A DNA stretch of 64,000 nt from an uncultured cyanobacterium (GCA_963744145.1 CAVUSO010000001.1:3808001-3872000), one strand, 5' to 3'; positions 49,056-62,998 are shown, counted from the first letter of the stretch. The notes: generated by a model not told the origin, from the letters alone. Made by a program: numbers and translations.

Positions 49056-49270
49056 CTTGCCCAAAAAAATTTTTGCCATTAGTGGTCAAAAGCTTAACCC
49101 AGAGAGAGTTAGGGAAATTTTCCACCACGACCACTACCACCAGGGCAAACATCCAATTAGTTAACTCAACCGTATTGAATATGAAATGCTTTTTTGCCAA
49201 AGCTGATCTCTTGTACCATGACTGGAATTGATTTCTACTTAATGGGAGTGGGTCTATTCTCTCTCTACCT

Positions 49271-49858
49271 ATGAACATTGAATCTCTCAATGATAGGCCA
49301 GCCGATCTCTTACTCCAGACTGATGCAGAGTTATTCTGTGCCTTAAAGGCTGGCCAATCGGCGGCCTTGGGAATTTTGTACGATCGCTATGCCAGTCTCG
49401 TGTATCGATTAGCTTTGAGGGTCTTGACTAATCATCAAGAAGCAGAAGACCTGACCCAAGAGATTTTCTTAACTCTGTGGCGTAGTAATACCTACAATCC
49501 AGATCGTGGATCTCTGGGCAGCTTTTTAACCACGCTAACTCGTTCTCGGGCGATCGATAAACTACGTTCTCGTGGTACTAACCGAAAATTCATCCAGCGT
49601 TGGCGGGATATGAACGTAGAAACTCCCCCACCAACTCCATTTGAGGAGGCTTCTTTAAGCCAACGCTCCCATTATGTTCGCGCCGCTCTAGCCCAGTTGC
49701 CCGAACATCAAAGACAGGTATTAGAAATGGCCTACTATGAGGGCCTGAGCCAATCAGAAATTTCTAAGCGATTAAATACACCTCTGGGAACAATTAAAAC
49801 CTGGGCTCGCCAAGGTTTATTAAAGCTCAGAAAACACTTACAGGACTTTATTGAATAG
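49271..49858 (+). CDS. ECF sigma factor (SigK-like)
   Basis: Motifs AL..LYDRY, AEDLTQEIF, RSRAIDKLR and YYEGLSQSEI..L..PLGTIKT. Confidence 0.92.
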   Translation: MNIESLNDRPADLLLQTDAELFCALKAGQSAALGILYDRYASLVYRLALRVLTNHQEAEDLTQEIFLTLWRSNTYNPDRGSLGSFLTTLTRSRAIDKLRSRGTNRKFIQRWRDMNVETPPPTPFEEASLSQRSHYVRAALAQLPEHQRQVLEMAYYEGLSQSEISKRLNTPLGTIKTWARQGLLKLRKHLQDFIE

Positions 49859-53760: not shown

Positions 53761-55077
53761 GTGACTTTCAAAATTGGTTTGCTGGGATTAGGAACAGTAG
53801 GGACAGGAACGGCAGAAATTTTGCTAGACTTAGTTGGACGTCATCCCCTCTTGTCAGAATTAGAAATCTACCGGGTAGGAGTGCGATCGCTAGATAAACC
53901 TCGCACTGTCAAATTACCTGAGCAAATCATCACAACAGATCTAGAAGCAATTGTCACTGATCCAAATGTGGATATTGTGGTGGAAGTAATCGGTGGATTG
54001 GAACCAGCTCGATCGCTAATCTTGAAAGCAATTGCGAATGGAAAACATATCGTAACAGCAAATAAAGCAGTGATCGCTCGTTATGGTGCAGAAATCTTTA
54101 CAATGGCTAATCAAGTGGGGGTTTATGTACTTCTAGAAGCCGCAGTTGGTGGTGGAATTCCCATCATTCAACCCCTGAAACAGTCTTTAGGTGTGAATCG
54201 GATTCAATCAGTGACTGGAATTGTTAACGGTACAACTAATTATATCCTGACGCGGATGCAAACTGAAGGTGCTGATTTTGATGTCGTTCTCGCAGATGCT
54301 CAAAAATTAGGTTATGCAGAAGCTGACCCCACCGCAGATGTCGATGGTTTAGATGCAGCTGATAAATTAGCGATTCTCGCTAGTTTAGCTTTTAATGGTC
54401 GGATCAAACTAGAGGAGGTTTACTGTGAAGGAATTCGTCAAGTTAGTGCCGCTGATATTGCTTATGCTGATAAATTAGATTTTGTGATTAAACTGCTCGC
54501 GATCGCTAAACGGGAACCTACTACAACAGGTGAAAATTTAGACAGGTTACAGTTAAGAGTTCATCCCACTTTAGTACCAAAAAATCATCCCCTCGCCAGT
54601 ATCAATGGTGTTTATAATGCTATTTTAGTCTCAGGAGAACCAATTGGAGATGTCATGTTCTATGGTCGTGGTGCTGGTGCTGGTCCAACAGCTAGTGCGA
54701 TCGTATCAGATATTTTAAGTATTACCGCAGTTTTAAAAACTAGCACGAGTGAACCACAACTAGAAAAACGTCACCCTCTCCTATCTTGTAGTCATCAACA
54801 CTACTGTGCGATCGCTCCAATTTCTGAACAGGTCAGTCGATTTTATGTCCGTTTTCTCACTCAGGATACTCCAGGGGTAATTGGTAAATTAGGCACCTGT
54901 TTTGGCGATCGGGGTGTTAGTTTGGAATCCTTAGTCCAAACTGGAATTCGGGGTAATTTTGCTGAAATCGTGGTAGTAACTCACGACGTTCTTGAATCTA
55001 ATTTCCGACAAGCATTAGCAGAAATTCAGACACTAGAAACTGTTGATAGTATTCCCAGTGTATTGCGGGTTCTCTAA
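53761..55077 (+). CDS. hom: Homoserine dehydrogenase with a C-terminal ACT domain
   Basis: Motifs GLLGLGTVG, VTANKA, EAAVGGGIP, NGTTNYIL, GYAEADP and GAGAGPTASA. Confidence 0.96.
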   Translation: MTFKIGLLGLGTVGTGTAEILLDLVGRHPLLSELEIYRVGVRSLDKPRTVKLPEQIITTDLEAIVTDPNVDIVVEVIGGLEPARSLILKAIANGKHIVTANKAVIARYGAEIFTMANQVGVYVLLEAAVGGGIPIIQPLKQSLGVNRIQSVTGIVNGTTNYILTRMQTEGADFDVVLADAQKLGYAEADPTADVDGLDAADKLAILASLAFNGRIKLEEVYCEGIRQVSAADIAYADKLDFVIKLLAIAKREPTTTGENLDRLQLRVHPTLVPKNHPLASINGVYNAILVSGEPIGDVMFYGRGAGAGPTASAIVSDILSITAVLKTSTSEPQLEKRHPLLSCSHQHYCAIAPISEQVSRFYVRFLTQDTPGVIGKLGTCFGDRGVSLESLVQTGIRGNFAEIVVVTHDVLESNFRQALAEIQTLETVDSIPSVLRVL

Positions 55078-55302: not shown

Positions 55303-55362
55303 ATATAAATTTATACGCTCACCTATATAAATTTATATGCTCACCTATATAAATTTATACGC
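55303..55362. repeat. 22-bp tandem repeat (~2.7 copies), each with the palindrome TATAAATTTATA
   Basis: ATATAAATTTATA(C/T)GC(TCACCT) at 55303, 55325 and 55347. Confidence 0.85.
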
Positions 55363-55674: not shown

Positions 55675-55700
55675 TGCATAATCGTTCCCACTCTTCACGA
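55675..55700 (+). promoter_or_regulatory. TGCATA-N16-ACGA motif, copy 1 (upstream of the GNAT gene)
   Basis: Same motif and spacing as 56455-56480. Confidence 0.55.
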
Positions 55701-55730: not shown

Positions 55731-56354
55731 ATGAAAACTAACCTCATTAATCAGGAATTGACCGGAACGATCGCCACTTTCCCTCAGCATCAATACCAGC
55801 CTAACACTTGGGAAACAGAAAGGCTATTCCTCCGACCCTTTACCGCCAAAGATTTTGCCGATCTTTACCGATTTTACAGCCATCGAGAAGTGATGCGTTT
55901 TATCGGCAAAGGTGCGAGAACCGAATCAGAAACTCTTGCTGAATTAATCAGTTTCATCACCCATTGGGAACAGCACTATTTCGGCAATTTTGCGATCATT
56001 CACAAAGCCTCTGGGAAATTGATGGGTCGCACTGGACTTTATCTTAGTGATCGATGCAAAGAGGCTCAGTTTGGCTACGTTTTGGATAAATCTTATTGGG
56101 GTAAAGGTCTTGGTTTGGAGGCCGCGAAAGCCAGTTTAGACTATGGTTTTAAGGTACTAGAGTTTGAGCAGATTGTCGCCTTTGCGATGCCAGAAAATTT
56201 TGTATCTCGGAAGATTTTATCTCAGAAATTGGGGATGCACTGCATCACAGATAATTTCATCTATTCTGGCATCCAATATGCTTATTATAGCATTGGGCGA
56301 GTCGAATACTTGACAAGTTCTTCTTGGCGTGTTAGGGCTTACCAACCTTCCTAA
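55731..56354 (+). CDS. GNAT (RimJ/RimL-like) N-acetyltransferase
   Basis: Motifs ETERLFLRPF, FGY.L..YWGKGLG.EAA and EN..SRK. Confidence 0.88.
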   Translation: MKTNLINQELTGTIATFPQHQYQPNTWETERLFLRPFTAKDFADLYRFYSHREVMRFIGKGARTESETLAELISFITHWEQHYFGNFAIIHKASGKLMGRTGLYLSDRCKEAQFGYVLDKSYWGKGLGLEAAKASLDYGFKVLEFEQIVAFAMPENFVSRKILSQKLGMHCITDNFIYSGIQYAYYSIGRVEYLTSSSWRVRAYQPS

Positions 56355-56454
56355 GCAGTCAGGAAAGGTGGAGTGGCGATCGCCTCATTTCTGGGCCTCA
56401 TAGCAGCGCGATCGCACCATCCCCAACTTCCCCAAAACAATTTTCCAGCTAAAC

Positions 56455-56480
56455 TGCATAAACTCCCTAACTCCCCACGA
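56455..56480 (+). promoter_or_regulatory. TGCATA-N16-ACGA motif, copy 2 (upstream of the sigma-like gene)
   Basis: Same motif and spacing as 55675-55700. Confidence 0.55.
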
Positions 56481-56599
56481 GAAAGATATATAGGAGTTAC
56501 ACAAGGATTACAAACTATCGGAGGTAGGTTGTATAAATTAGTTCACTGCGATCGATATAACTTTAGTTACTCAAAGATGACTTGGGAGTAGTCACTAGA

Positions 56600-58120
56600 A
56601 TGGCAGACCTAATTGAGCGATTTTCGACTTTTCAAGGAATGGCAGACCTAATTGAGCGATTTTCGACTTTTCAAGAAGTCAATCCCCATCGTCGCCAAGT
56701 GCAGGATTCTAAGCTAAGACAAAATTTGCATTGCTTGCTAGAACAGTATCCAGAACTCAATGATGAAACAGCGTTGCTGAGATATTTCTGCAATGCTGCT
56801 GAGAATAACTCGGATTCATTAGCACGTTGTCATCTACTTGCTTATGTAGATTCTGCTTGCTATTCAGCAGCGATCGCAACTTACCAAATCTTCCGCACAC
56901 CGGATCTCACTTTGGAAGACTATCTGCAAATTGCCAGAGATAAAATTGCTCCCTGTCTTATTCAATTATGCGCTCAGTACGATCCCAGTCAAAGCCAAAT
57001 CACAACTTATGCTTCTCCGTTCCTCCGCAGTGCTATTATGAGCGAACTGCGTTGCCACCAAGAAATAGAAAGGCGGAGTGATTGGTCGCTGTTGCGAAAT
57101 TTCTCGAAGACTAAGCGGAAAAAAGTTTTAGATAAATTTGGAATCAAAGAGCCAAAATTATCTAATTGTTTGCTAATTTGGCAAGGCTTTTCAGAAGTTT
57201 ATGCCCCAGTTAAAGCACGGAGAAATCCGAAATTACCACCGCCAACTGAGAAACAATGGCAGGCGATCGCCCAATTTGGCAACGAACAGCAATTACCGCA
57301 CTCAGTTAAACCCTTCACCGTGCAGGACAGCCAAGAATTGTTAGGAATTTGCGTTAATGCGCTGCGAGAACCTAGTAGAATTAATTTGTATTCACTCAAT
57401 GAAGACAACCGAGATTTAGAACTAGAGATCACTAAAAAATCCCAGCAGCAAGTATGGTACAGAGAACAACAAACGGCTGAATCTGAGCAATACCAACAGG
57501 TGAAAATAGAATTAGCCAGCGCGATCGCCTCCCTCCCTGCTGATGCCCGAAAAATGTTAATCTTAGAACATGGCTTCATCGGATTTAACCAAAGTTACAT
57601 CGGTCAAGAGTTCGGCATCCAGCAATATCAGGTTTCTCGAAATTTAACTGGCTACAAACGCCGTCTCTTAGAAGTTTTGGTGCAGTGGAGTCAAAGACAA
57701 CTAGGTGTTAATTTGAGTTTAGAAACTGTCAAACGCCTATCAATTTATCTCGATGAGTGGCTGATTTGGTATTGCCAAAATACTATTCTGTACAGGTTTT
57801 TGGAAGCCGTTTTGAGGCTGCATCCTGCCCTTAAGTTGGAAATTAAGTTGTTGTATCGCTATTATGGGATGAGTTTACCAGGAAAAGCAGATGAAAGAGC
57901 GATCGAGATCGCCTGGGAATTTAACCTGGCACAAACTGAGTTGCAGGAAAAGTTAATGCAAGTTAAAACAACTTTGCAAGAACAGTTACACCAATGGCTA
58001 CAGCAAACTCTTGCACTCAAACCCTGTTCTCTAAGAGTGATGAATAATTCCTCAGCATTGTTAGTAGAACAGTTTTTAGCCAACGCGCCTTATGCCCTTT
58101 TAATCAGCGAACGGAGGTAA
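56600..58120 (+). CDS. Cyanobacterial sigma-70-like protein of the DUF1822/CHAT-linked type
   Basis: Region-2-like HLLAY..CY..YDPS...TYA...LR; region-4 HTH ML.L.HG..NQ..IGQEFGIQQYQVSR; degenerate second HTH near the C-terminus. Confidence 0.7.
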   Translation: MADLIERFSTFQGMADLIERFSTFQEVNPHRRQVQDSKLRQNLHCLLEQYPELNDETALLRYFCNAAENNSDSLARCHLLAYVDSACYSAAIATYQIFRTPDLTLEDYLQIARDKIAPCLIQLCAQYDPSQSQITTYASPFLRSAIMSELRCHQEIERRSDWSLLRNFSKTKRKKVLDKFGIKEPKLSNCLLIWQGFSEVYAPVKARRNPKLPPPTEKQWQAIAQFGNEQQLPHSVKPFTVQDSQELLGICVNALREPSRINLYSLNEDNRDLELEITKKSQQQVWYREQQTAESEQYQQVKIELASAIASLPADARKMLILEHGFIGFNQSYIGQEFGIQQYQVSRNLTGYKRRLLEVLVQWSQRQLGVNLSLETVKRLSIYLDEWLIWYCQNTILYRFLEAVLRLHPALKLEIKLLYRYYGMSLPGKADERAIEIAWEFNLAQTELQEKLMQVKTTLQEQLHQWLQQTLALKPCSLRVMNNSSALLVEQFLANAPYALLISERR

Positions 58121-59301
58121 TGAAAATGGTATTCAATTTAGAACAATTAAGCCTAGCCTGTCCCCATCATCTCTGGCTAGAGTTTTCGGAAAAAGAACAG
58201 GAAAAAGCTGTTTCTGTAAGACTGGATTACTCCCATGATGCAGCAAGTCATCGCGCTTTCTTAAATCGGCTGACTCTGGCAGTTTTGTTACCTGTATTGC
58301 AAGCAGAATCTGAAGCATTTACCCAAATTACATCCCCGGAAAATATTTGGGAATTTGTGACAGGTTTTGCCATCAGTTTGGGTAAAAATCGCTTGGTAAT
58401 TATTGCAAGTGAAACCATTGATACTGATGAATTTTCTGTGCCTCAAGAATGGGTAGATATTCCTGAATGGGCGGCTGATTATTATTTGGCTGTGCAGGTG
58501 AATTTAGAGGATGGATGGTTGCGGGTGTGGGGGTTTACAACCCATCGAAAACTGAAAAATGAAGGTAGGTATGATCGGGGCGATCGCACCTATTCTCTCA
58601 ATGGAGAAGATCTGTTTGAGCATCTCAATACTTTGTGGGTTTCTCTGAAACTTTGTCAAGGAGAAAAAGCGTTGATTGAACCTTTACCCGTCTTATCTTC
58701 TAACCAAATAGAGATGCTATTGGTAGAATTAGGTAAACCTTCTCTTTATTCCCCACGTTTGAAAATACCTTTTGCACAGTGGGGTGCGCTATTAGCTGCT
58801 GATAATTCAAGGCAAGAATTGTATCAGCGACGGTTGGAAAATGTGCCTAATATTGTGCAATTGGGTAAAAATATTTTCCCTGATTGGTGGCTAATGTTTG
58901 ATGAGTTAGTGCAAGCGTGTAACCTCAATCTTTCCTTTGCTAGAAGTGGAGCGCGATCGGGGGATAATGAAGAGCGTACTCCGGGAATTAGTCGGGGACG
59001 AGTGATTGATTTGGGGATTCAATTGGCGGGTAATTCTATGGCGCTAATTGTGCATTTCACTAAGGAATCAGAGAATAAACATAACATTTTGTTACAGGTA
59101 AATCCGGGTGGGGGTCAAACTTATTTACCGCCAGATGTGGAATTGATTGTATTAGATGATACGGGTGATGTGTTTTTGGAAGCGCGATCGCGCAGTGCTG
59201 ATAATTGGATTCAATTGGAGTTTCGGGGTGAGCCTGGGGAGCGGTTTAGTGTTAAGGTGGCTTTAGGGGATGCTAGTATTATGGAATATTTTGCAATCTA
59301 A
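58120..59301 (+). CDS. DUF1822 family protein
   Basis: Motifs VPQEWVDIPEWAADYYLAVQV, WGFTTH and ARSRSADNWIQLEF.GEPGERFSV; TAATG overlap with the sigma gene. Confidence 0.88.
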   Translation: MKMVFNLEQLSLACPHHLWLEFSEKEQEKAVSVRLDYSHDAASHRAFLNRLTLAVLLPVLQAESEAFTQITSPENIWEFVTGFAISLGKNRLVIIASETIDTDEFSVPQEWVDIPEWAADYYLAVQVNLEDGWLRVWGFTTHRKLKNEGRYDRGDRTYSLNGEDLFEHLNTLWVSLKLCQGEKALIEPLPVLSSNQIEMLLVELGKPSLYSPRLKIPFAQWGALLAADNSRQELYQRRLENVPNIVQLGKNIFPDWWLMFDELVQACNLNLSFARSGARSGDNEERTPGISRGRVIDLGIQLAGNSMALIVHFTKESENKHNILLQVNPGGGQTYLPPDVELIVLDDTGDVFLEARSRSADNWIQLEFRGEPGERFSVKVALGDASIMEYFAI

Positions 59302-59319
59302 CCTAACCAGGAGAAAACA

Positions 59320-62319
59320 ATGAGAAAGTTAGTGATGCTGATTTTTGAAGAAAAGGGAGACTTGGAAAGAGTAGGTTTTTCGGTAACGTTACGACTAGGG
59401 GACGAGGGGCAAACTTTGCCTACTCAGCAAACTGGATCTTTACCGTCAAACCCGGAACTGGTTGAGTCTTACAACAGTTGGAAAGAAACTTATGATGGCT
59501 GCTTTATTAGGGTAAATGGTAGTAGATTAGAACAGCCAGCAAAACAAATAACTAACTTCTCAATTCCAGAGGTTGAGATAAAATCTGAGAATTTGAGGCA
59601 ACAATTTAATGACTGGTTACAATCGCAGCAATTGAATAATGTTAGGCAAGAATTAGTTGCCCTAGTTGCCAATTTACAAGAAAATGATGAAGTGCGGTTG
59701 ATTATCCAAACTTCAAATACACAGCTACAGAAACTTCCCTGGCATCTTTGGGATATATTGAGAGGTTGCCCTAAAGCTGAAATTAGTGTCAGTCCGCACA
59801 ATTTCAGTCCGCGGCCCAGTGTTAGAAAAAGAACATCAGCCAAATTTGCTAATAATCAAGTTAATATTTTGGCAATTTTGGGCAATGATAAGGAAATTAA
59901 TGTTGAAGAAGATCGAAGAATATTAAATTCTATTCCGGGTGCTAAAGTTAAGTTTTTAGTTAAACCCGAGCAACGAGACATCGACAATGAACTCAGGGAA
60001 AAGTCTTGGGATATTCTATTTTTTGCGGGACATAGCCGCACGGAGGGAGAAAAAGGAATCATATATATTAATTCGACTGAGAGTTTAACTATCGGTAACT
60101 TAAATTATGCGTTAGAAGAGGCAATTAGAAACGGTTTACAAATAGCAATTTTTAACTCTTGTGATAGTTTAGGGTTAGCTAAAGATTTAGCTGATTTGAA
60201 TCTCCCTCACATGATTATCATGCGAGAACAGGTTCCTGATAAAGTGGCACAGGAATTTTTGAAATATTTTCTGGGTTTTTTTTCACAGGGTCAGTCATTT
60301 TATTTAGCGGTTAAGAAAGCACGGGAAAAATTGCAGAGTTTGGAAAATCAGTTTCCCTGTGCTTCTTGGTTGCCTGTTATCTACCAAAAAAATCCTACTA
60401 AGATACCCCCTACTTGGAAAGAGTTACGGAGAATAGATAAAAAATCAGCTTTTTGTCTGAGCGCGTTATGTTTGGCAGAGGCAGCGGCAGCTTTTCTGGT
60501 ATCGGTAAGTCTTGTCCCATCTCCTGTGAATACTAATCACATTCTGATCTTAGTTTTAGGTGGATTAATCTTTGCCCAATCTCCTCCTGCGATCAAAGGC
60601 AAAAATTTACTAATTATTGCTGTAATTACTTTACCAATTATTTTTTTATGGCGGAGTTTGCAAGGTGGTTTTGGTTTGGAAATTGTGATCGGTATAGCAG
60701 CTTTAGCTGGATTAGGTGTGATCGCGATGGCATTGCATAATGTCAGGATGATTTCCCCATTTTTCAGACGAATTTTCATCGCTTTCAGCCGTCGATTCAT
60801 CCCCTGGATTAGCAACGCCTTGCGGTTTGGAGTTAGATTACAGGTTTTAGTATTGCTGAGCTTGGGCATCGCAATGTTGGATAGTAATCCTCCCTTTAAT
60901 CTTCACTTTAGTTTGGGTGACAAACCCCTTTTTTATAATGGCACGGATGTGACAGCAAAAAAGCTGCTAGATACCGGGGTGTTTGTTTATAATGGCACGG
61001 ATGTGACAGCAAAAAAGCTGCTAGGTATCTGGGAGTTTGCCCTGCTGGGAAATGGCCTGGGACATTATGAATGTGCTAGGGATGCCTTCGACAATTATCT
61101 AAAGCAAAATCCAAATGACCCAGAGGCTTTAATTTATAAGAATAATGCGATCGCCCGTCTTTCTGGTCGTCCACCTCTTCGCATTGCCGTCAGCGTTCCC
61201 ATTGGCAGTAACCCGGACGTTGCTGCTGAGATTTTACGAGGTGTTGCTCAGGCTCAGGCTCAAATTAATAATGATGCAAACGGCATTAATGGTGCCAAGT
61301 TAGAAATCAAACTTGCTGACGATCGCAACAATCGCGCCCTTGCAGCAAGTATCGCGCATACTTTTGTTCATGATCCCCAGGTTCTTGCCGTTATTGGACA
61401 CAATGCAAGTAACGCTTCTCAGGCGGCTGCTCCCATCTATAACAGGAATCACCTGGTGATGATCACTCCCACAAGCTTTGCAAGCGCAGTAACTAATAGC
61501 GACTGGCCTTATATTTTTCAAACTACTCCTACAGCTGAGAAATATACCAAAAGATTAGTCAATTATATTGTCAAAACTGATAATATTAAGAAAGCCGTAT
61601 TTTGTTTTGACTCTAACGCGCAAGATAATAACGATTTCAAAAAGGCGCTCTCTAAATCCTTAATCGAACTTGCTAACACAAGTGAATGCGATGTTAGGTC
61701 ACAATCATTCAATGCGGATGATGCAATTCAGGAAGCTAATGATAGAAATGCACAAGCCTTGATCGTCAATCCTTTTATAGACGAGATTGATAAAACCGCA
61801 AAGCTATTTAATGCCAACACCAATAACGATCCTCCCTTGCATCTGTATGGGTCGTCCACATTCAATACCTTTAAGACCTTAAGTATGGGAGCAGCAATCG
61901 AAAACCTTGTCATTCCAGTCGCATGGTATCCAGATTTTTATACAAAGACTAAGTTTGTTGAGGAGGCCACAAACCTATGGGGAACATCCTCTATCAATTG
62001 GCGTACCGCCATGAGTTATGATGCAGCCGAAGCAATCATTACAGCTTTACTGCAAATCCCATCTAGATCCGATATCAAAGACATTCGATCCGATATCAAA
62101 GAGACTCTATTAAAAAAAGACTTTTCAGTAGAAGGAGCAGAAGGGACAGCTCGACCAGTGAAATTTGATAGCAAAGGTGGCCGCAGCTGCGATCTTCCTA
62201 TTTTATTACTCCAAGTGAAACAGAAAGACCCCTCAAACCCCAAGACAGAATATGGTTTTGTACGGTTGGACGTTCCTGATCCAGAGGATAAATCGACGGT
62301 TGAATGCGATAAAAATTAG
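59320..62319 (+). CDS. CHAT (caspase/HetF-like) protease + TM segments + type-1 (LivJ-like) periplasmic ligand-binding domain
   Basis: CHAT motifs LPWHLW, FFAGHS, FNSCD and PCASWLPV; hydrophobic block; then NDPEALIY.NNA, LRGVAQAQ, LAVIGHNAS and WRTAMSYDA. Confidence 0.88.
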   Translation: MRKLVMLIFEEKGDLERVGFSVTLRLGDEGQTLPTQQTGSLPSNPELVESYNSWKETYDGCFIRVNGSRLEQPAKQITNFSIPEVEIKSENLRQQFNDWLQSQQLNNVRQELVALVANLQENDEVRLIIQTSNTQLQKLPWHLWDILRGCPKAEISVSPHNFSPRPSVRKRTSAKFANNQVNILAILGNDKEINVEEDRRILNSIPGAKVKFLVKPEQRDIDNELREKSWDILFFAGHSRTEGEKGIIYINSTESLTIGNLNYALEEAIRNGLQIAIFNSCDSLGLAKDLADLNLPHMIIMREQVPDKVAQEFLKYFLGFFSQGQSFYLAVKKAREKLQSLENQFPCASWLPVIYQKNPTKIPPTWKELRRIDKKSAFCLSALCLAEAAAAFLVSVSLVPSPVNTNHILILVLGGLIFAQSPPAIKGKNLLIIAVITLPIIFLWRSLQGGFGLEIVIGIAALAGLGVIAMALHNVRMISPFFRRIFIAFSRRFIPWISNALRFGVRLQVLVLLSLGIAMLDSNPPFNLHFSLGDKPLFYNGTDVTAKKLLDTGVFVYNGTDVTAKKLLGIWEFALLGNGLGHYECARDAFDNYLKQNPNDPEALIYKNNAIARLSGRPPLRIAVSVPIGSNPDVAAEILRGVAQAQAQINNDANGINGAKLEIKLADDRNNRALAASIAHTFVHDPQVLAVIGHNASNASQAAAPIYNRNHLVMITPTSFASAVTNSDWPYIFQTTPTAEKYTKRLVNYIVKTDNIKKAVFCFDSNAQDNNDFKKALSKSLIELANTSECDVRSQSFNADDAIQEANDRNAQALIVNPFIDEIDKTAKLFNANTNNDPPLHLYGSSTFNTFKTLSMGAAIENLVIPVAWYPDFYTKTKFVEEATNLWGTSSINWRTAMSYDAAEAIITALLQIPSRSDIKDIRSDIKETLLKKDFSVEGAEGTARPVKFDSKGGRSCDLPILLLQVKQKDPSNPKTEYGFVRLDVPDPEDKSTVECDKN
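60729..60819 (+). mobile_element. 91-bp MITE-like element, left copy (translated in frame within the CHAT gene)
   Basis: Has its own imperfect TIRs GGCATTGCATAAT...ATTAGCAACGCC; 76/91 identical to the reverse complement of 62269-62359 by hand alignment. Confidence 0.75.
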
Positions 62320-62359
62320 TCCGAAAAATTGGAAAATCATACTGCCATTATGCAACGCC
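62269..62359 (-). mobile_element. 91-bp MITE-like element, right copy (inverted); supplies the CHAT stop codon
   Basis: Reverse complement of 60729-60819, ending ...CATTATGCAACGCC. Confidence 0.75.
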
Positions 62360-62998
62360 CTATTTCGACGTATTTACAATTCTCTGTCTCAGCAAAATAA
62401 AACTACAGTTTTAATCTTATCTTTATTAATTCCAGCAGGGTTTTGCATCTGGTGGTTTATGCCGCCTGATAGTTGGTGGTTTATGTCGCCTGATAGTTTT
62501 GCGAAAGTGTCCAATGTTCCCTCCGGATCTTTTTTTTATGGAGGAAGTACCGCTTGGGCACCAATTAGTCACGTTGTAAATTCTGTGATTGAAAATATAT
62601 GGCCTCAGTTTAAATTGAGTTATAAACAACCTAATACTGACGCTCCTGAATCAAGTACTGGGATTAAAATGCTTTTAGATAATCAGTTAGCATTTTCTCA
62701 GTCTTCTCGCCCTGTGAAAGATGAAGAATATAAAGCTGCTAAACACAAGGTATTTACCCTCAAAGAAGTAACGATCACTATTGATGGAATAGCGTTTATA
62801 GTTAAACCGAATTTAAATATTACTGGTTTAAATTTAGCTCAGATTAAAGATATTTATACTGGCAAAATTACCAACTGGAGTCAAGTCGGCGGTCCGAACC
62901 AAACAATTATCCCTTACTCTCTTCATAGTGGAAGTGAAACCATAGATTTTTTGATAGAAAACATTTTAAAAAACGAGAAGCTGGGCGAGCAGGTTTGA
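62356..62998 (+). pseudogene. Orphaned, truncated TM + PstS-type substrate-binding domain; probable former C-terminus of the CHAT gene
   Basis: Motifs VPSG.F.YGGST.WAP, S.TGI.MLL..QL.FSQSSRP and IYTGKITNW..VGGP; the second lobe is missing and there is no convincing own start. Confidence 0.75.

Follow-up and report, generated by a model that had tools for sequence, protein, structure and literature searches.

A cyanobacterial gene module of a long sigma-70-family protein, a DUF1822 protein and a sensor-linked CHAT protease, with a predicted anti-sigma-like interface

A 64-kb stretch of DNA from an uncultured cyanobacterium (GCA_963744145.1 CAVUSO010000001.1:3808001–3872000; called the window here, and the source of all positions given without a locus label) carries three consecutive genes for a sigma-70-family protein, a DUF1822 protein and a receptor in which a caspase-like CHAT protease is joined to a LivJ-type ligand-binding domain, with a GNAT acetyltransferase gene ahead of them (Table 1). 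All genes noted lie on the + strand. The three form a translationally coupled trio: the sigma and DUF1822 reading frames overlap at TAATG (58118–58122), directly preceded by GGAGG (58113–58117), and AGGAG (59309–59313) lies ahead of the ATG of the receptor gene, so the tight coupling claimed in a first-pass annotation of this DNA stands at the positions given there. We regard it as nearly certain that the window holds one copy of a widespread cyanobacterial module of sigma factor, DUF1822 and sensor-linked caspase-like protease; a scan of the window for a second copy found none. Among named relatives, the best for the DUF1822 protein is a Microcoleus sequence (83% identity), so that the DNA comes from an oscillatorian cyanobacterium.

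Table 1. Genes, protein parts and promoter-like motifs of the module (aa, amino acids; nt, nucleotides; ORF, open reading frame)
Feature	Position	Strand	Basis or remark
Promoter-like bipartite motif, TGCATAA-15 nt-ACGA	55675..55700	+	31 nt upstream of GNAT start codon
GNAT acetyltransferase, 207 aa	55731..56354	+	PF13302, 7.4e-30; candidate regulon gene
Promoter-like bipartite motif	56455..56480	+	Upstream of sigma operon, 159 nt before ATG 56639
Sigma-70-family protein, 493 aa	56639..58120	+	TIGR02937; ORF opens at TTG 56582; alternative ATG 56600
DUF1822 protein, 393 residues	58120..59301	+	PF08852, 4e-85, residues 20–391
DUF1822 N-terminal part, residues 1–260	58120..58899	+	Predicted sigma-binding module (model)
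DUF1822 linker, residues 270–290	58927..58989	+	Predicted disordered, Arg-rich; candidate protease site (inference)
DUF1822 C-terminal beta-sandwich, residues 291–393	58990..59301	+	Model; kept with EACC2–CHAT module
CHAT receptor, 999 aa	59320..62319	+	CHAT PF12770 and Peripla_BP_6
Receptor constant N-terminal module (EACC2 + CHAT), residues 1–370	59320..60429	+	CHAT PF12770, conservation
Five hydrophobic (transmembrane-like) segments, residues 376–521	60445..60882	+	Kyte–Doolittle scan and positive-inside reading
LivJ-type (type I periplasmic binding protein) sensor, residues 620–927	61177..62100	+	Peripla_BP_6

The first protein of the trio belongs to the sigma-70 family, with regions 2 and 4 recognisable in both sequence and fold. 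It matches the NCBIfam model TIGR02937 for the sigma-70/extracytoplasmic function (ECF) superfamily (7.3e-14, 51.7 bits, cut-off 42.9), as do 40/40 aligned members of its family, which numbers 391 cluster representatives at E ≤ 1e-3; a Pfam search with the protein at E ≤ 0.01 returned nothing. The profile of those 40 members finds FliA (2.9e-12) through separate stretches on region 2 and regions 3–4, and Sigma70_r3 is matched by 4/40 members. Foldseek searches with the AlphaFold2 (AF2) model (predicted local distance difference test, pLDDT, 87.3) return sigma factors as all 37 best matches, at a probability of 0.75–1.00 (best ten 0.99–1.00). Their E-values are only about 1e-3 and their template-modelling (TM) scores 0.13–0.20, low scores being what a protein of several domains would give when its conformation differs; the sole non-sigma protein among the matches listed is a designed repeat protein (probability 0.25).

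At 493 aa this is not an ECF (group 4) sigma factor in the strict sense of regions 2 and 4 only in about 200 aa. By our own reading of the model, it is built of an N-terminal extension, region 2, an insertion, a disordered linker, region 4 and a C-terminal extension, with about 100 residues between regions 2 and 4. The linker (residues 252–271) is a run of 20 residues with pLDDT < 50. The C-terminal extension spans about 130 residues, is absent in family members of about 400 aa and, in the long form, resembles a second helix-turn-helix. Translation likely starts at ATG 56639 or 56600: homologues begin at the position of the former, and the 39 nt preceding it are a perfect tandem copy, with ATG 56600 inside the duplication.

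The AF2 model of the DUF1822 protein (pLDDT 82.6, predicted TM score 0.49) is not that of a tetratricopeptide repeat (TPR) protein: it shows an alpha+beta domain (residues 1–180), a set of helices (190–270) and a beta-sandwich (about 290–393). Between helices and sandwich runs a linker whose residues 275–285 have pLDDT < 50 and in which at least 90% of 30 sequences keep R275; the repeat ARSGARSG is also present in this linker. Compared with the PDB, the model has no whole-protein fold match (best TM-score 0.19; Brr2 Sec63 units and generic Ig-like sandwiches score at or below this value), and only the generic beta-sandwich finds matches, among them one RsgI sensor domain at rank 50 (E 5e-3). 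Longer DUF1822 homologues contain HEAT-repeat (PF13646) domains.

Modelling the sigma and DUF1822 proteins together, each with its own alignment, in three runs and with three controls, gives a confident interface, with an interface score (ipSAE) of 0.87 in the three runs and 0.00 in the best of the 3 controls. The mark used for this score was reached by 116/157 solved complexes and 2/215 mismatched pairs, counts that apply only roughly here because own alignments were used. The runs show 184–208 contacts, at least 88% of them common, and a partner pLDDT of 81–82. As DUF1822 has no solved relative, the result is not the recall of a known complex. On the sigma side the predicted interface takes in residues 80–217 (region 2 and the following insertion) and 317–369 (region 4); on the DUF1822 side it is confined to residues 2–215 and leaves the beta-sandwich free, with the most confident contacts made by the invariant stretch YSPRL, in which R213 sits. 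Sigma residues at the interface are slightly more conserved than the rest (0.46 versus 0.39, p = 2.5e-4). Anti-sigma factors cover sigma regions 2 and 4 together, and the N-terminal part of DUF1822 is predicted to cover regions 2 to 4 in a similar, anti-sigma-like way. On this modelling, which the first-pass annotation had proposed as a check, we consider it likely that DUF1822 binds the sigma factor.

The receptor begins with a module that is conserved over residues 1–370 in 69 homologues, residues 1–100 included. Its CHAT domain (residues 111–350, 8.3e-12, 45.6 bits, cut-off 24) retains the catalytic dyad, as had been claimed: His238 (FAGHS; codon CAT, 60031–60033) and Cys281 (NSCDS; codon TGT, 60160–60162) are invariant in 69/69 aligned CHAT modules. 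We call the module EACC2–CHAT after Kaur, Iyer, Burroughs and Aravind (eLife 2021, PMC8195603), a label assigned here by architecture and not by profile. Likeness to relatives stops near residue 370, and the region downstream is unrelated even in the closest ones. In the window, five hydrophobic segments follow, with a charge distribution that fits an N-in/C-out topology; the protease would thus be cytoplasmic and the binding domain external, in line with the earlier description of a CHAT domain tied through transmembrane segments to an extracytoplasmic domain. The binding domain itself is of the LivJ type, as first described, by its Peripla_BP_6 match (1.4e-26, 94.4 bits, cut-off 31.7) and by its sequence matches to branched-chain amino-acid binding proteins in the PDB (3hut, 1.4e-13; LivJ 2liv, 2.5e-9). 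A total of 273 proteins of 549–1749 aa match receptor residues 560–999, and the N-terminal parts of these sensor proteins, among the matches listed, are CHAT, caspase, kinase, TIR or AAA-like; many of these fusions are cyanobacterial.

The trio is a conserved unit. DUF1822 homologues number at least 1567 at E ≤ 1e-3 in the protein database; scanning one genome per species gave 586 relatives, from which 80 loci (labelled L below) were kept and their ORFs searched with profiles from our own alignments. All but three record titles are cyanobacterial, the exceptions being a Flavobacteriales bin, a Rhizobium bin and an 'uncultured bacterium'. A sigma gene lies directly upstream of DUF1822 in 70/80 loci, and in 67 of the 73 with enough upstream flank (at least 1.5 kb). 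An EACC2–CHAT gene lies directly downstream in 57/80 (51/66 with enough flank, rising to 53/66 within 3.5 kb), and all three genes are adjacent in 42 of the 60 loci with both flanks. This neighbourhood survey, also among the checks proposed at first pass, thus finds DUF1822 together with sigma and CHAT genes across cyanobacteria. Several copies of the module occur per genome, and DUF1822 matches fall on 31 plasmid records. At L033 and L039 a TPR–CHAT gene is inserted ahead of the EACC2–CHAT gene. The C-terminal regions of the 51 complete CHAT neighbours are diverse: CHASE2 in 35 (one with a kinase), NACHT in 4, nSTAND1 with WD40 in 2, TPR in 2, an AAA/STAND-like ATPase with TPR and RelA/SpoT in 1, a ricin-type lectin with DUF4214 in 1, a weak binding-protein match in 1 and nothing beyond CHAT in 5. 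Pairwise distances in the 42 complete triplets co-vary most for sigma and DUF1822 (r = 0.91, partial 0.75 given CHAT); shared descent inflates all such values, and the partial correlations speak for sigma and DUF1822 as a tight pair.

Further features were seen at these loci. A conserved protein of about 182–220 aa is encoded directly upstream of the sigma gene in 7/80 loci (L001 5718–6266, L005 5675–6337, L006 5477–6025, L017 61–609, L027 5665–6228, L046 348–932 and L056 5960–6514), and is missing from the window. Pfam gave no match for the three copies scanned, and the copies in L006, L046 and L056 have a TGCATAA motif of their own. DUF928 genes recur near the modules (L063 3910–4692, L066 306–1088, L081 999–1763, L082 2680–3450 and L084 7804–8616), often with genes for TPS (haemagglutinin-like secretion domain) proteins, and the bipartite motif described below precedes the L063 and L066 copies. 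L081, on plasmid alpha of Nostoc sp. PCC 7120 (339593–341853), is a pair of sigma (370 aa) and DUF1822 (383 aa) genes beside a divergently transcribed gene for a CHASE2-domain protein and a DUF928 gene. L012 and L039, from the bins labelled Flavobacteriales and Rhizobium, fall within cyanobacterial clades, and the sigma protein of L012 hardly differs from the one encoded by L013, a contig of Pseudanabaenaceae (end branches 0.002 and 0). Mis-binning probably accounts for these contigs.

Two divergent plasmid loci suggest how DUF1822 is divided. L083 (Planktothrix pseudagardhii p1) encodes a 214-aa sigma-70-family protein upstream of a 377-aa DUF1822 protein that shares only residues 282–393 of the window's (45.5%); its CHAT protein combines CHAT with a binding domain, with 43.6% identity in residues 6–366 and 38.9% in the sensor. 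L084 (Nostoc sp. UHCC 0302) has a 250-aa hypothetical protein upstream, a 319-aa DUF1822 protein that shares only residues 250–393 (34.5%), and a CHAT–CHASE2 protein with 42.2% identity over the constant module. Neither upstream partner matches the profile of the long sigma family at E ≤ 1. Because these loci share only the C-terminal part of DUF1822 beside conserved CHAT modules, DUF1822 looks like a protein of two parts, an N-terminal part that changes with the sigma partner and a beta-sandwich that stays with the protease module.

A search for longer DUF1822 fusions found two proteins and among them no fusion to a sigma factor or to CHAT, which is weak evidence. Both proteins (P0391 and P0392, 921 and 931 aa) join DUF1822 to dynamin-like GTPase domains. 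Separate GTPase genes follow DUF1822 in L019 (10482–12389) and L069 (10592–13336), in what looks like a GTPase-coupled variant.

Upstream of both the GNAT gene and the sigma operon lies the promoter-like pair of elements TGCATA-N16-ACGA, which the first-pass annotation had picked out and which has exactly two matches in the 64 kb (expected 0.10; two or more in 1/100 shuffles). It proves to be a member of a motif conserved upstream of the sigma family. Within 460 nt around the sigma ORF start at 68 loci, sense-strand TGCATA occurs at 41/68 and a bipartite form, under the strict pattern TGCATA[AT]-N15-16-C[CG][ACG][AT], at 35/68. The bipartite density is 1.116 per kb upstream of sigma genes versus 0.0186 per kb in the remainder of the loci (both strands, 34 matches in 1.83 Mb), a 60-fold difference. 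The motif takes the form TGCATAA, 15–16 nt, and CACGA or CCCATA: its −35-like TGCATAA is constant and its −10-like part differs by sigma clade, the CCCATA type being found in 24/26 rows of one clade and the CACGA type in 7/9 rows of the window's clade, with other sigma clades lacking the motif. On a quick maximum-likelihood sigma tree the −10 types need 9 changes, against a shuffled mean of 29.4, although this clustering alone proves little because relatives share upstream sequence. Spacers diverge among loci while both elements persist.

The motif also reaches genes beyond the sigma operon. In L006 it stands 57 nt upstream of a GNAT homologue (PF13302, 4.8e-30); other matches outside sigma upstream regions precede the L006 CHAT gene, DUF928 genes and genes for trypsin-like peptidases, and the same motif precedes DUF1822 itself where no sigma gene comes before. 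One EACC2–caspase operon in supplementary file 3 of Kaur et al. is followed by 'Acetyltransf'. This distribution speaks for a sigma factor that controls its own gene together with a few genes nearby, the GNAT gene among them, and the sigma factor of the trio may be the one that reads the TGCATAA-type motif.

We propose the following mechanism. The N-terminal part of DUF1822 would hold the long sigma-70-family protein inactive by covering its regions 2 to 4, as predicted in the complex model, and the beta-sandwich, judging from its co-occurrence with the protease across loci, would couple the sigma–DUF1822 pair to the constant cytoplasmic EACC2–CHAT module. By analogy with HetF, a ligand on the extracytoplasmic LivJ-type domain would activate the CHAT protease. 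The protease would then cut DUF1822, the cut most likely following an Arg residue within the disordered linker or close to it, just as HetF, a CHAT protease, cleaves PatU3 after Arg117 (Xing et al., PNAS 2022, PMC9457339); conserved Arg residues are the candidate sites, among them R275 in the linker and R213 in the YSPRL stretch, and R231 and R238 are conserved too. Once freed, the sigma factor would transcribe from TGCATAA-N15-16-CACGA promoters, which by motif conservation would include those of its own operon and of the GNAT gene. For the whole chain, from a sigma factor held by DUF1822 through ligand-dependent CHAT cleavage to sigma release, we judge the chances evenly balanced.

Several observations weigh against this chain. 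The DUF1822 model resembles no known anti-sigma fold in the PDB (whole-model TM ≤ 0.19), and its predicted interface residues are not more conserved than the rest (0.60 versus 0.61). The window's own sigma-operon site (CACGAG) is one base off the strict survey pattern. No EACC2–CHAT gene lies within 3.5 kb in 13/66 loci with enough downstream flank, and at seven of these the next gene of any size on the downstream side codes for a C14 caspase in L040 and L055, for a Ser/Thr kinase in L067 and L080, for a dynamin-like GTPase in L019 and L069 and for a STAND–WD40 protein in L071, so that protease input is not obligatory for the sigma–DUF1822 pair. Among the 42 triplets, DUF1822–CHAT distances correlate with r = 0.78 but with a partial value of only 0.13 given sigma, as against r = 0.82 and a partial value of 0.44 given DUF1822 for sigma and CHAT, which argues weakly against DUF1822 as the closest co-evolving partner of the protease. 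That DUF1822 is the CHAT substrate is a step drawn by analogy, to which we give slightly less than even weight, and Kaur et al. proposed autoproteolysis in place of DUF1822 cleavage.

These partial correlations would also suit a scheme in which the protease cuts the sigma factor, either itself or as presented by a DUF1822 acting as adaptor or scaffold; a cut in, for example, the 252–271 linker or at the extra C-terminal domain would then switch the sigma factor on or off. The 20-residue segment of low pLDDT and the C-terminal extension missing from shorter family members offer places for such a cut, and a CRISPR-linked cascade with a caspase-like protease that cleaves a putative sigma factor has been described (Steens et al., preprint). 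Against this stand L083 and L084, which keep CHAT beside the C-terminal domain of DUF1822 though the sigma type changes, and the nearest experimental precedent, where the inhibitor PatU3 is cut and not the sigma factor; we think cleavage of the sigma factor quite improbable. That the three genes are merely adjacent, and that the 999-aa protein is an ordinary substrate-binding protein of an ABC transporter, is a reading invited by public annotation, which gives many homologues the name 'ABC transporter substrate-binding protein'. It is already contradicted by the CHAT and sensor domains, the invariant dyad and the conserved gene order: the binding domain shares one protein with the CHAT protease and the five hydrophobic segments that precede it, and the translationally coupled genes keep their order across many cyanobacterial families. 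We give it practically no credence.

A further possibility concerns biological role. Following Kaur et al., the module could be a conflict system, for defence or programmed cell death, in which the sensor triggers autoproteolysis of the EACC2–caspase, the transcriptional arm is secondary and the ligand is an invader-derived or damage signal and not a nutrient or cell–cell signal. Highly variable CHAT C-terminal domains, with close relatives diverging after residue 370, several copies per genome and the plasmid records agree with that proposal. None of the four proteins, however, has a PADLOC match (E ≤ 0.01), and the conservation of both the sigma factor and its promoter, which seems to be autoregulated, points to transcriptional output. 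Conflict as the role strikes us as unlikely; it is in any case compatible with an anti-sigma mechanism of the kind preferred here, in which DUF1822 holds the sigma factor until CHAT cleavage.

Other features of the window lie around the module. A 72-aa ORF (56373–56591) was dropped as a gene because it matches no family and the promoter motif overlaps it. Between positions 55000 and 63400, sigma-70 consensus promoters (22 versus 19.8 expected) and terminators (6 versus 7.6) are at chance level. A PstS-like ORF of 248 aa (62252–62998) shares its first 68 nt with the end of the CHAT gene and covers only positions 42–189 of the 295 in its profile (TIGR02136, 93.7 bits versus a cut-off of 206.6). 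Truncation or a later start may explain this. Three consecutive coding regions contain short tandem duplications with lengths in multiples of three: 39 nt ×2 at 100% identity in the sigma N-terminus (56598–56675), 54 nt ×2 at 92% just ahead of the binding domain (60932–61039) and 24 nt ×2 inside the PstS-like ORF (62450–62498). An intergenic 22-nt ×2.7 repeat lies at 55303–55362, and several palindromes of the type GCGATCGC stand between the GNAT and sigma genes (56370–56560); we take these to be HIP1-like and typical of cyanobacteria. An ORF at 49232–49855 has a weak match to the sigma-family profile (2.2e-06, 20.2 bits) and is probably an unrelated small sigma factor or helix-turn-helix protein.

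Kaur et al. described this kind of trio in 2021 by computation only, so it is already known: EACC2–caspase genes stand with genes for an ECF sigma factor and DUF1822, and EACC2 denotes a constant N-terminal alpha+beta domain, after which come a caspase domain and a C-terminus that varies greatly, such as CHASE2 with transmembrane helices (PMC8195603). Their proposal runs from a stimulus to activation of the autopeptidase, with the final step via the sigma factor. In supplementary file 3 of that paper, 21 proteins listed by NCBI under the name DUF1822 bear the label 'TRADD-N+TPRs' and differ in their N-terminal parts, and 10 of the 21 are followed by an EACC2–caspase gene. The window has every element of this description, a constant module with CHAT, a variable C-terminal sensor, which in their account may be extracellular, and adjoining sigma and DUF1822 genes, and our survey reproduces the association. 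The novelty claimed for the system at first pass was therefore overstated, both the neighbourhood and the sensor–protease–sigma chain having been published; the conserved unit, the intact dyad, the LivJ-type sensor, the predicted sigma–DUF1822 binding and the motif in the same interpretation held up. DUF1822 is 'a TPR protein' in that account, unlike the alpha+beta protein with a C-terminal beta-sandwich modelled here. The main text of PMC8195603 does not contain the terms 'anti-sigma', 'periplasmic', 'PBP', HetF, HetZ or PatU, and its section 9, the part searched for one, gives no promoter motif. In the literature searched, DUF1822 is rarely named and is given no tested function. What is added here is the predicted anti-sigma-like interface, the two-module DUF1822, the promoter motif and the parallel with sigma-HetZ, PatU and HetF.

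That parallel is with the switch of heterocyst development. In the account of sigma-HetZ by Hu et al. (PNAS 2026, PMC13342950), patU5–patU3 are co-transcribed with hetZ, and PatU3, which binds HetZ via i1, i3 and region 4, acts as its inhibitor and is described as 'a potential anti-sigma factor'; sigma-HetZ is an unusually long ECF-type factor with the order i1, sigma2, i2, sigma3.2, sigma4, i3 and uses TCCGGA-N16-17-TGNA promoters. The main text of that paper does not mention HetF, and we did not find HetF, PatU3, HetZ and 'sigma factor' treated together in the literature searched. Combined with the cleavage reported in PMC9457339, it is by analogy the chain that we propose for the window, a CHAT protease cutting the co-transcribed inhibitor of a long sigma factor. 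The analogy with HetF–PatU3 invoked in the first-pass annotation has become much closer, because PatU3 is now proposed as the anti-sigma factor of sigma-HetZ. The window resembles this system in its CHAT protease (whose cleavage step is supposed by analogy), in a predicted sigma-binding protein, putatively an inhibitor, encoded downstream of the sigma gene and in a long sigma factor with extra domains whose order, as we read it from the model, matches that of sigma-HetZ. It differs in its motif (TGCATAA-N15-16-CACGA or CCCATA), in the ligand-binding domain carried by its protease and in gene order, hetF not being adjacent to hetZ–patU in the cited papers.

Whether the two systems share descent is a separate matter. 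Two independent language-model comparisons place the sigma protein near a 'HetZ-related' cluster (PF28104; 0.90, 177 shared features, rank 18) and DUF1822 near a 'putative PatU' cluster (0.82, 171 shared features, rank 15), similarities that serve as leads only. Residues 202–357 of the CHAT protein are collinear with positions 205–376 of the HetF model NF045509, but the score of 30.6 bits falls far below the cut-off (1200), and the window protease is therefore not a HetF orthologue. For the sigma family, HetZ was absent among the first 25 of 120 Pfam families listed for 40 members, NCBIfam returned generic sigma models only for 40 members and nothing at 1e-35 for 86 of the 150 listed representatives (340–470 aa), and the R..DY..Q motif of the sigma-HetZ paper is absent from the 150; tblastn of the sigma protein against plasmids met only 'sigma-70 family' or 'hypothetical' names. 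Homology of the trio to HetZ, PatU and HetF is only a lead, and the module probably works, by analogy, like the protease/anti-sigma/sigma switch of heterocyst development.

A broader joint claim, which we hold to be doubtful, is that sigma/DUF1822/sensor–CHAT modules are a broad family of which the heterocyst switch is one specialised offshoot, and that DUF1822 represents a novel type of anti-sigma adaptor built of two parts, with an N-terminal part that clamps the sigma factor, a sandwich that docks on the constant domain of the protease and a linker that is cut when ligand binds outside the cell. If so, filamentous cyanobacteria would possess numerous caspase-gated sigma switches working in parallel, and each would have a promoter code of its own. 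Should the link to HetZ, PatU and HetF be real, a well-studied developmental switch would be tied to a large family of uncharacterised sensor–protease modules, and bacteria would offer an example of receptor signalling through a caspase-like protease to a sigma factor. DUF1822 gains here a concrete, testable predicted role, with a sigma-binding interface, two modules, candidate cleavage residues and a regulon-defining motif, and the copy on plasmid alpha makes the system experimentally accessible in the model strain Nostoc PCC 7120.

Two further systems bear comparison. In the type III-E Craspase, Csx29 (TPR–CHAT) cleaves Csx30, which controls a sigma factor (PMC10028731), so that a CHAT protease gates a sigma factor through the cut of a partner, as we suppose by analogy for the window. 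Activation there comes from binding of the guide-RNA target on Cas7-11, whereas the window lacks CRISPR components as well as any PADLOC match.

In systems of the RseA/DegS/RseP type, an extracytoplasmic signal leads to proteolysis of a membrane anti-sigma factor, and the sigma factor is autoregulated. The scheme proposed for the window would share the external signal, the proteolysis of a sigma inhibitor and the autoregulation. Unlike RseA, no anti-sigma domain fold was found in the DUF1822 model; the window's predicted inhibitor is soluble, and its protease, a caspase-like domain in the cytoplasm, forms part of the same protein as the sensor.

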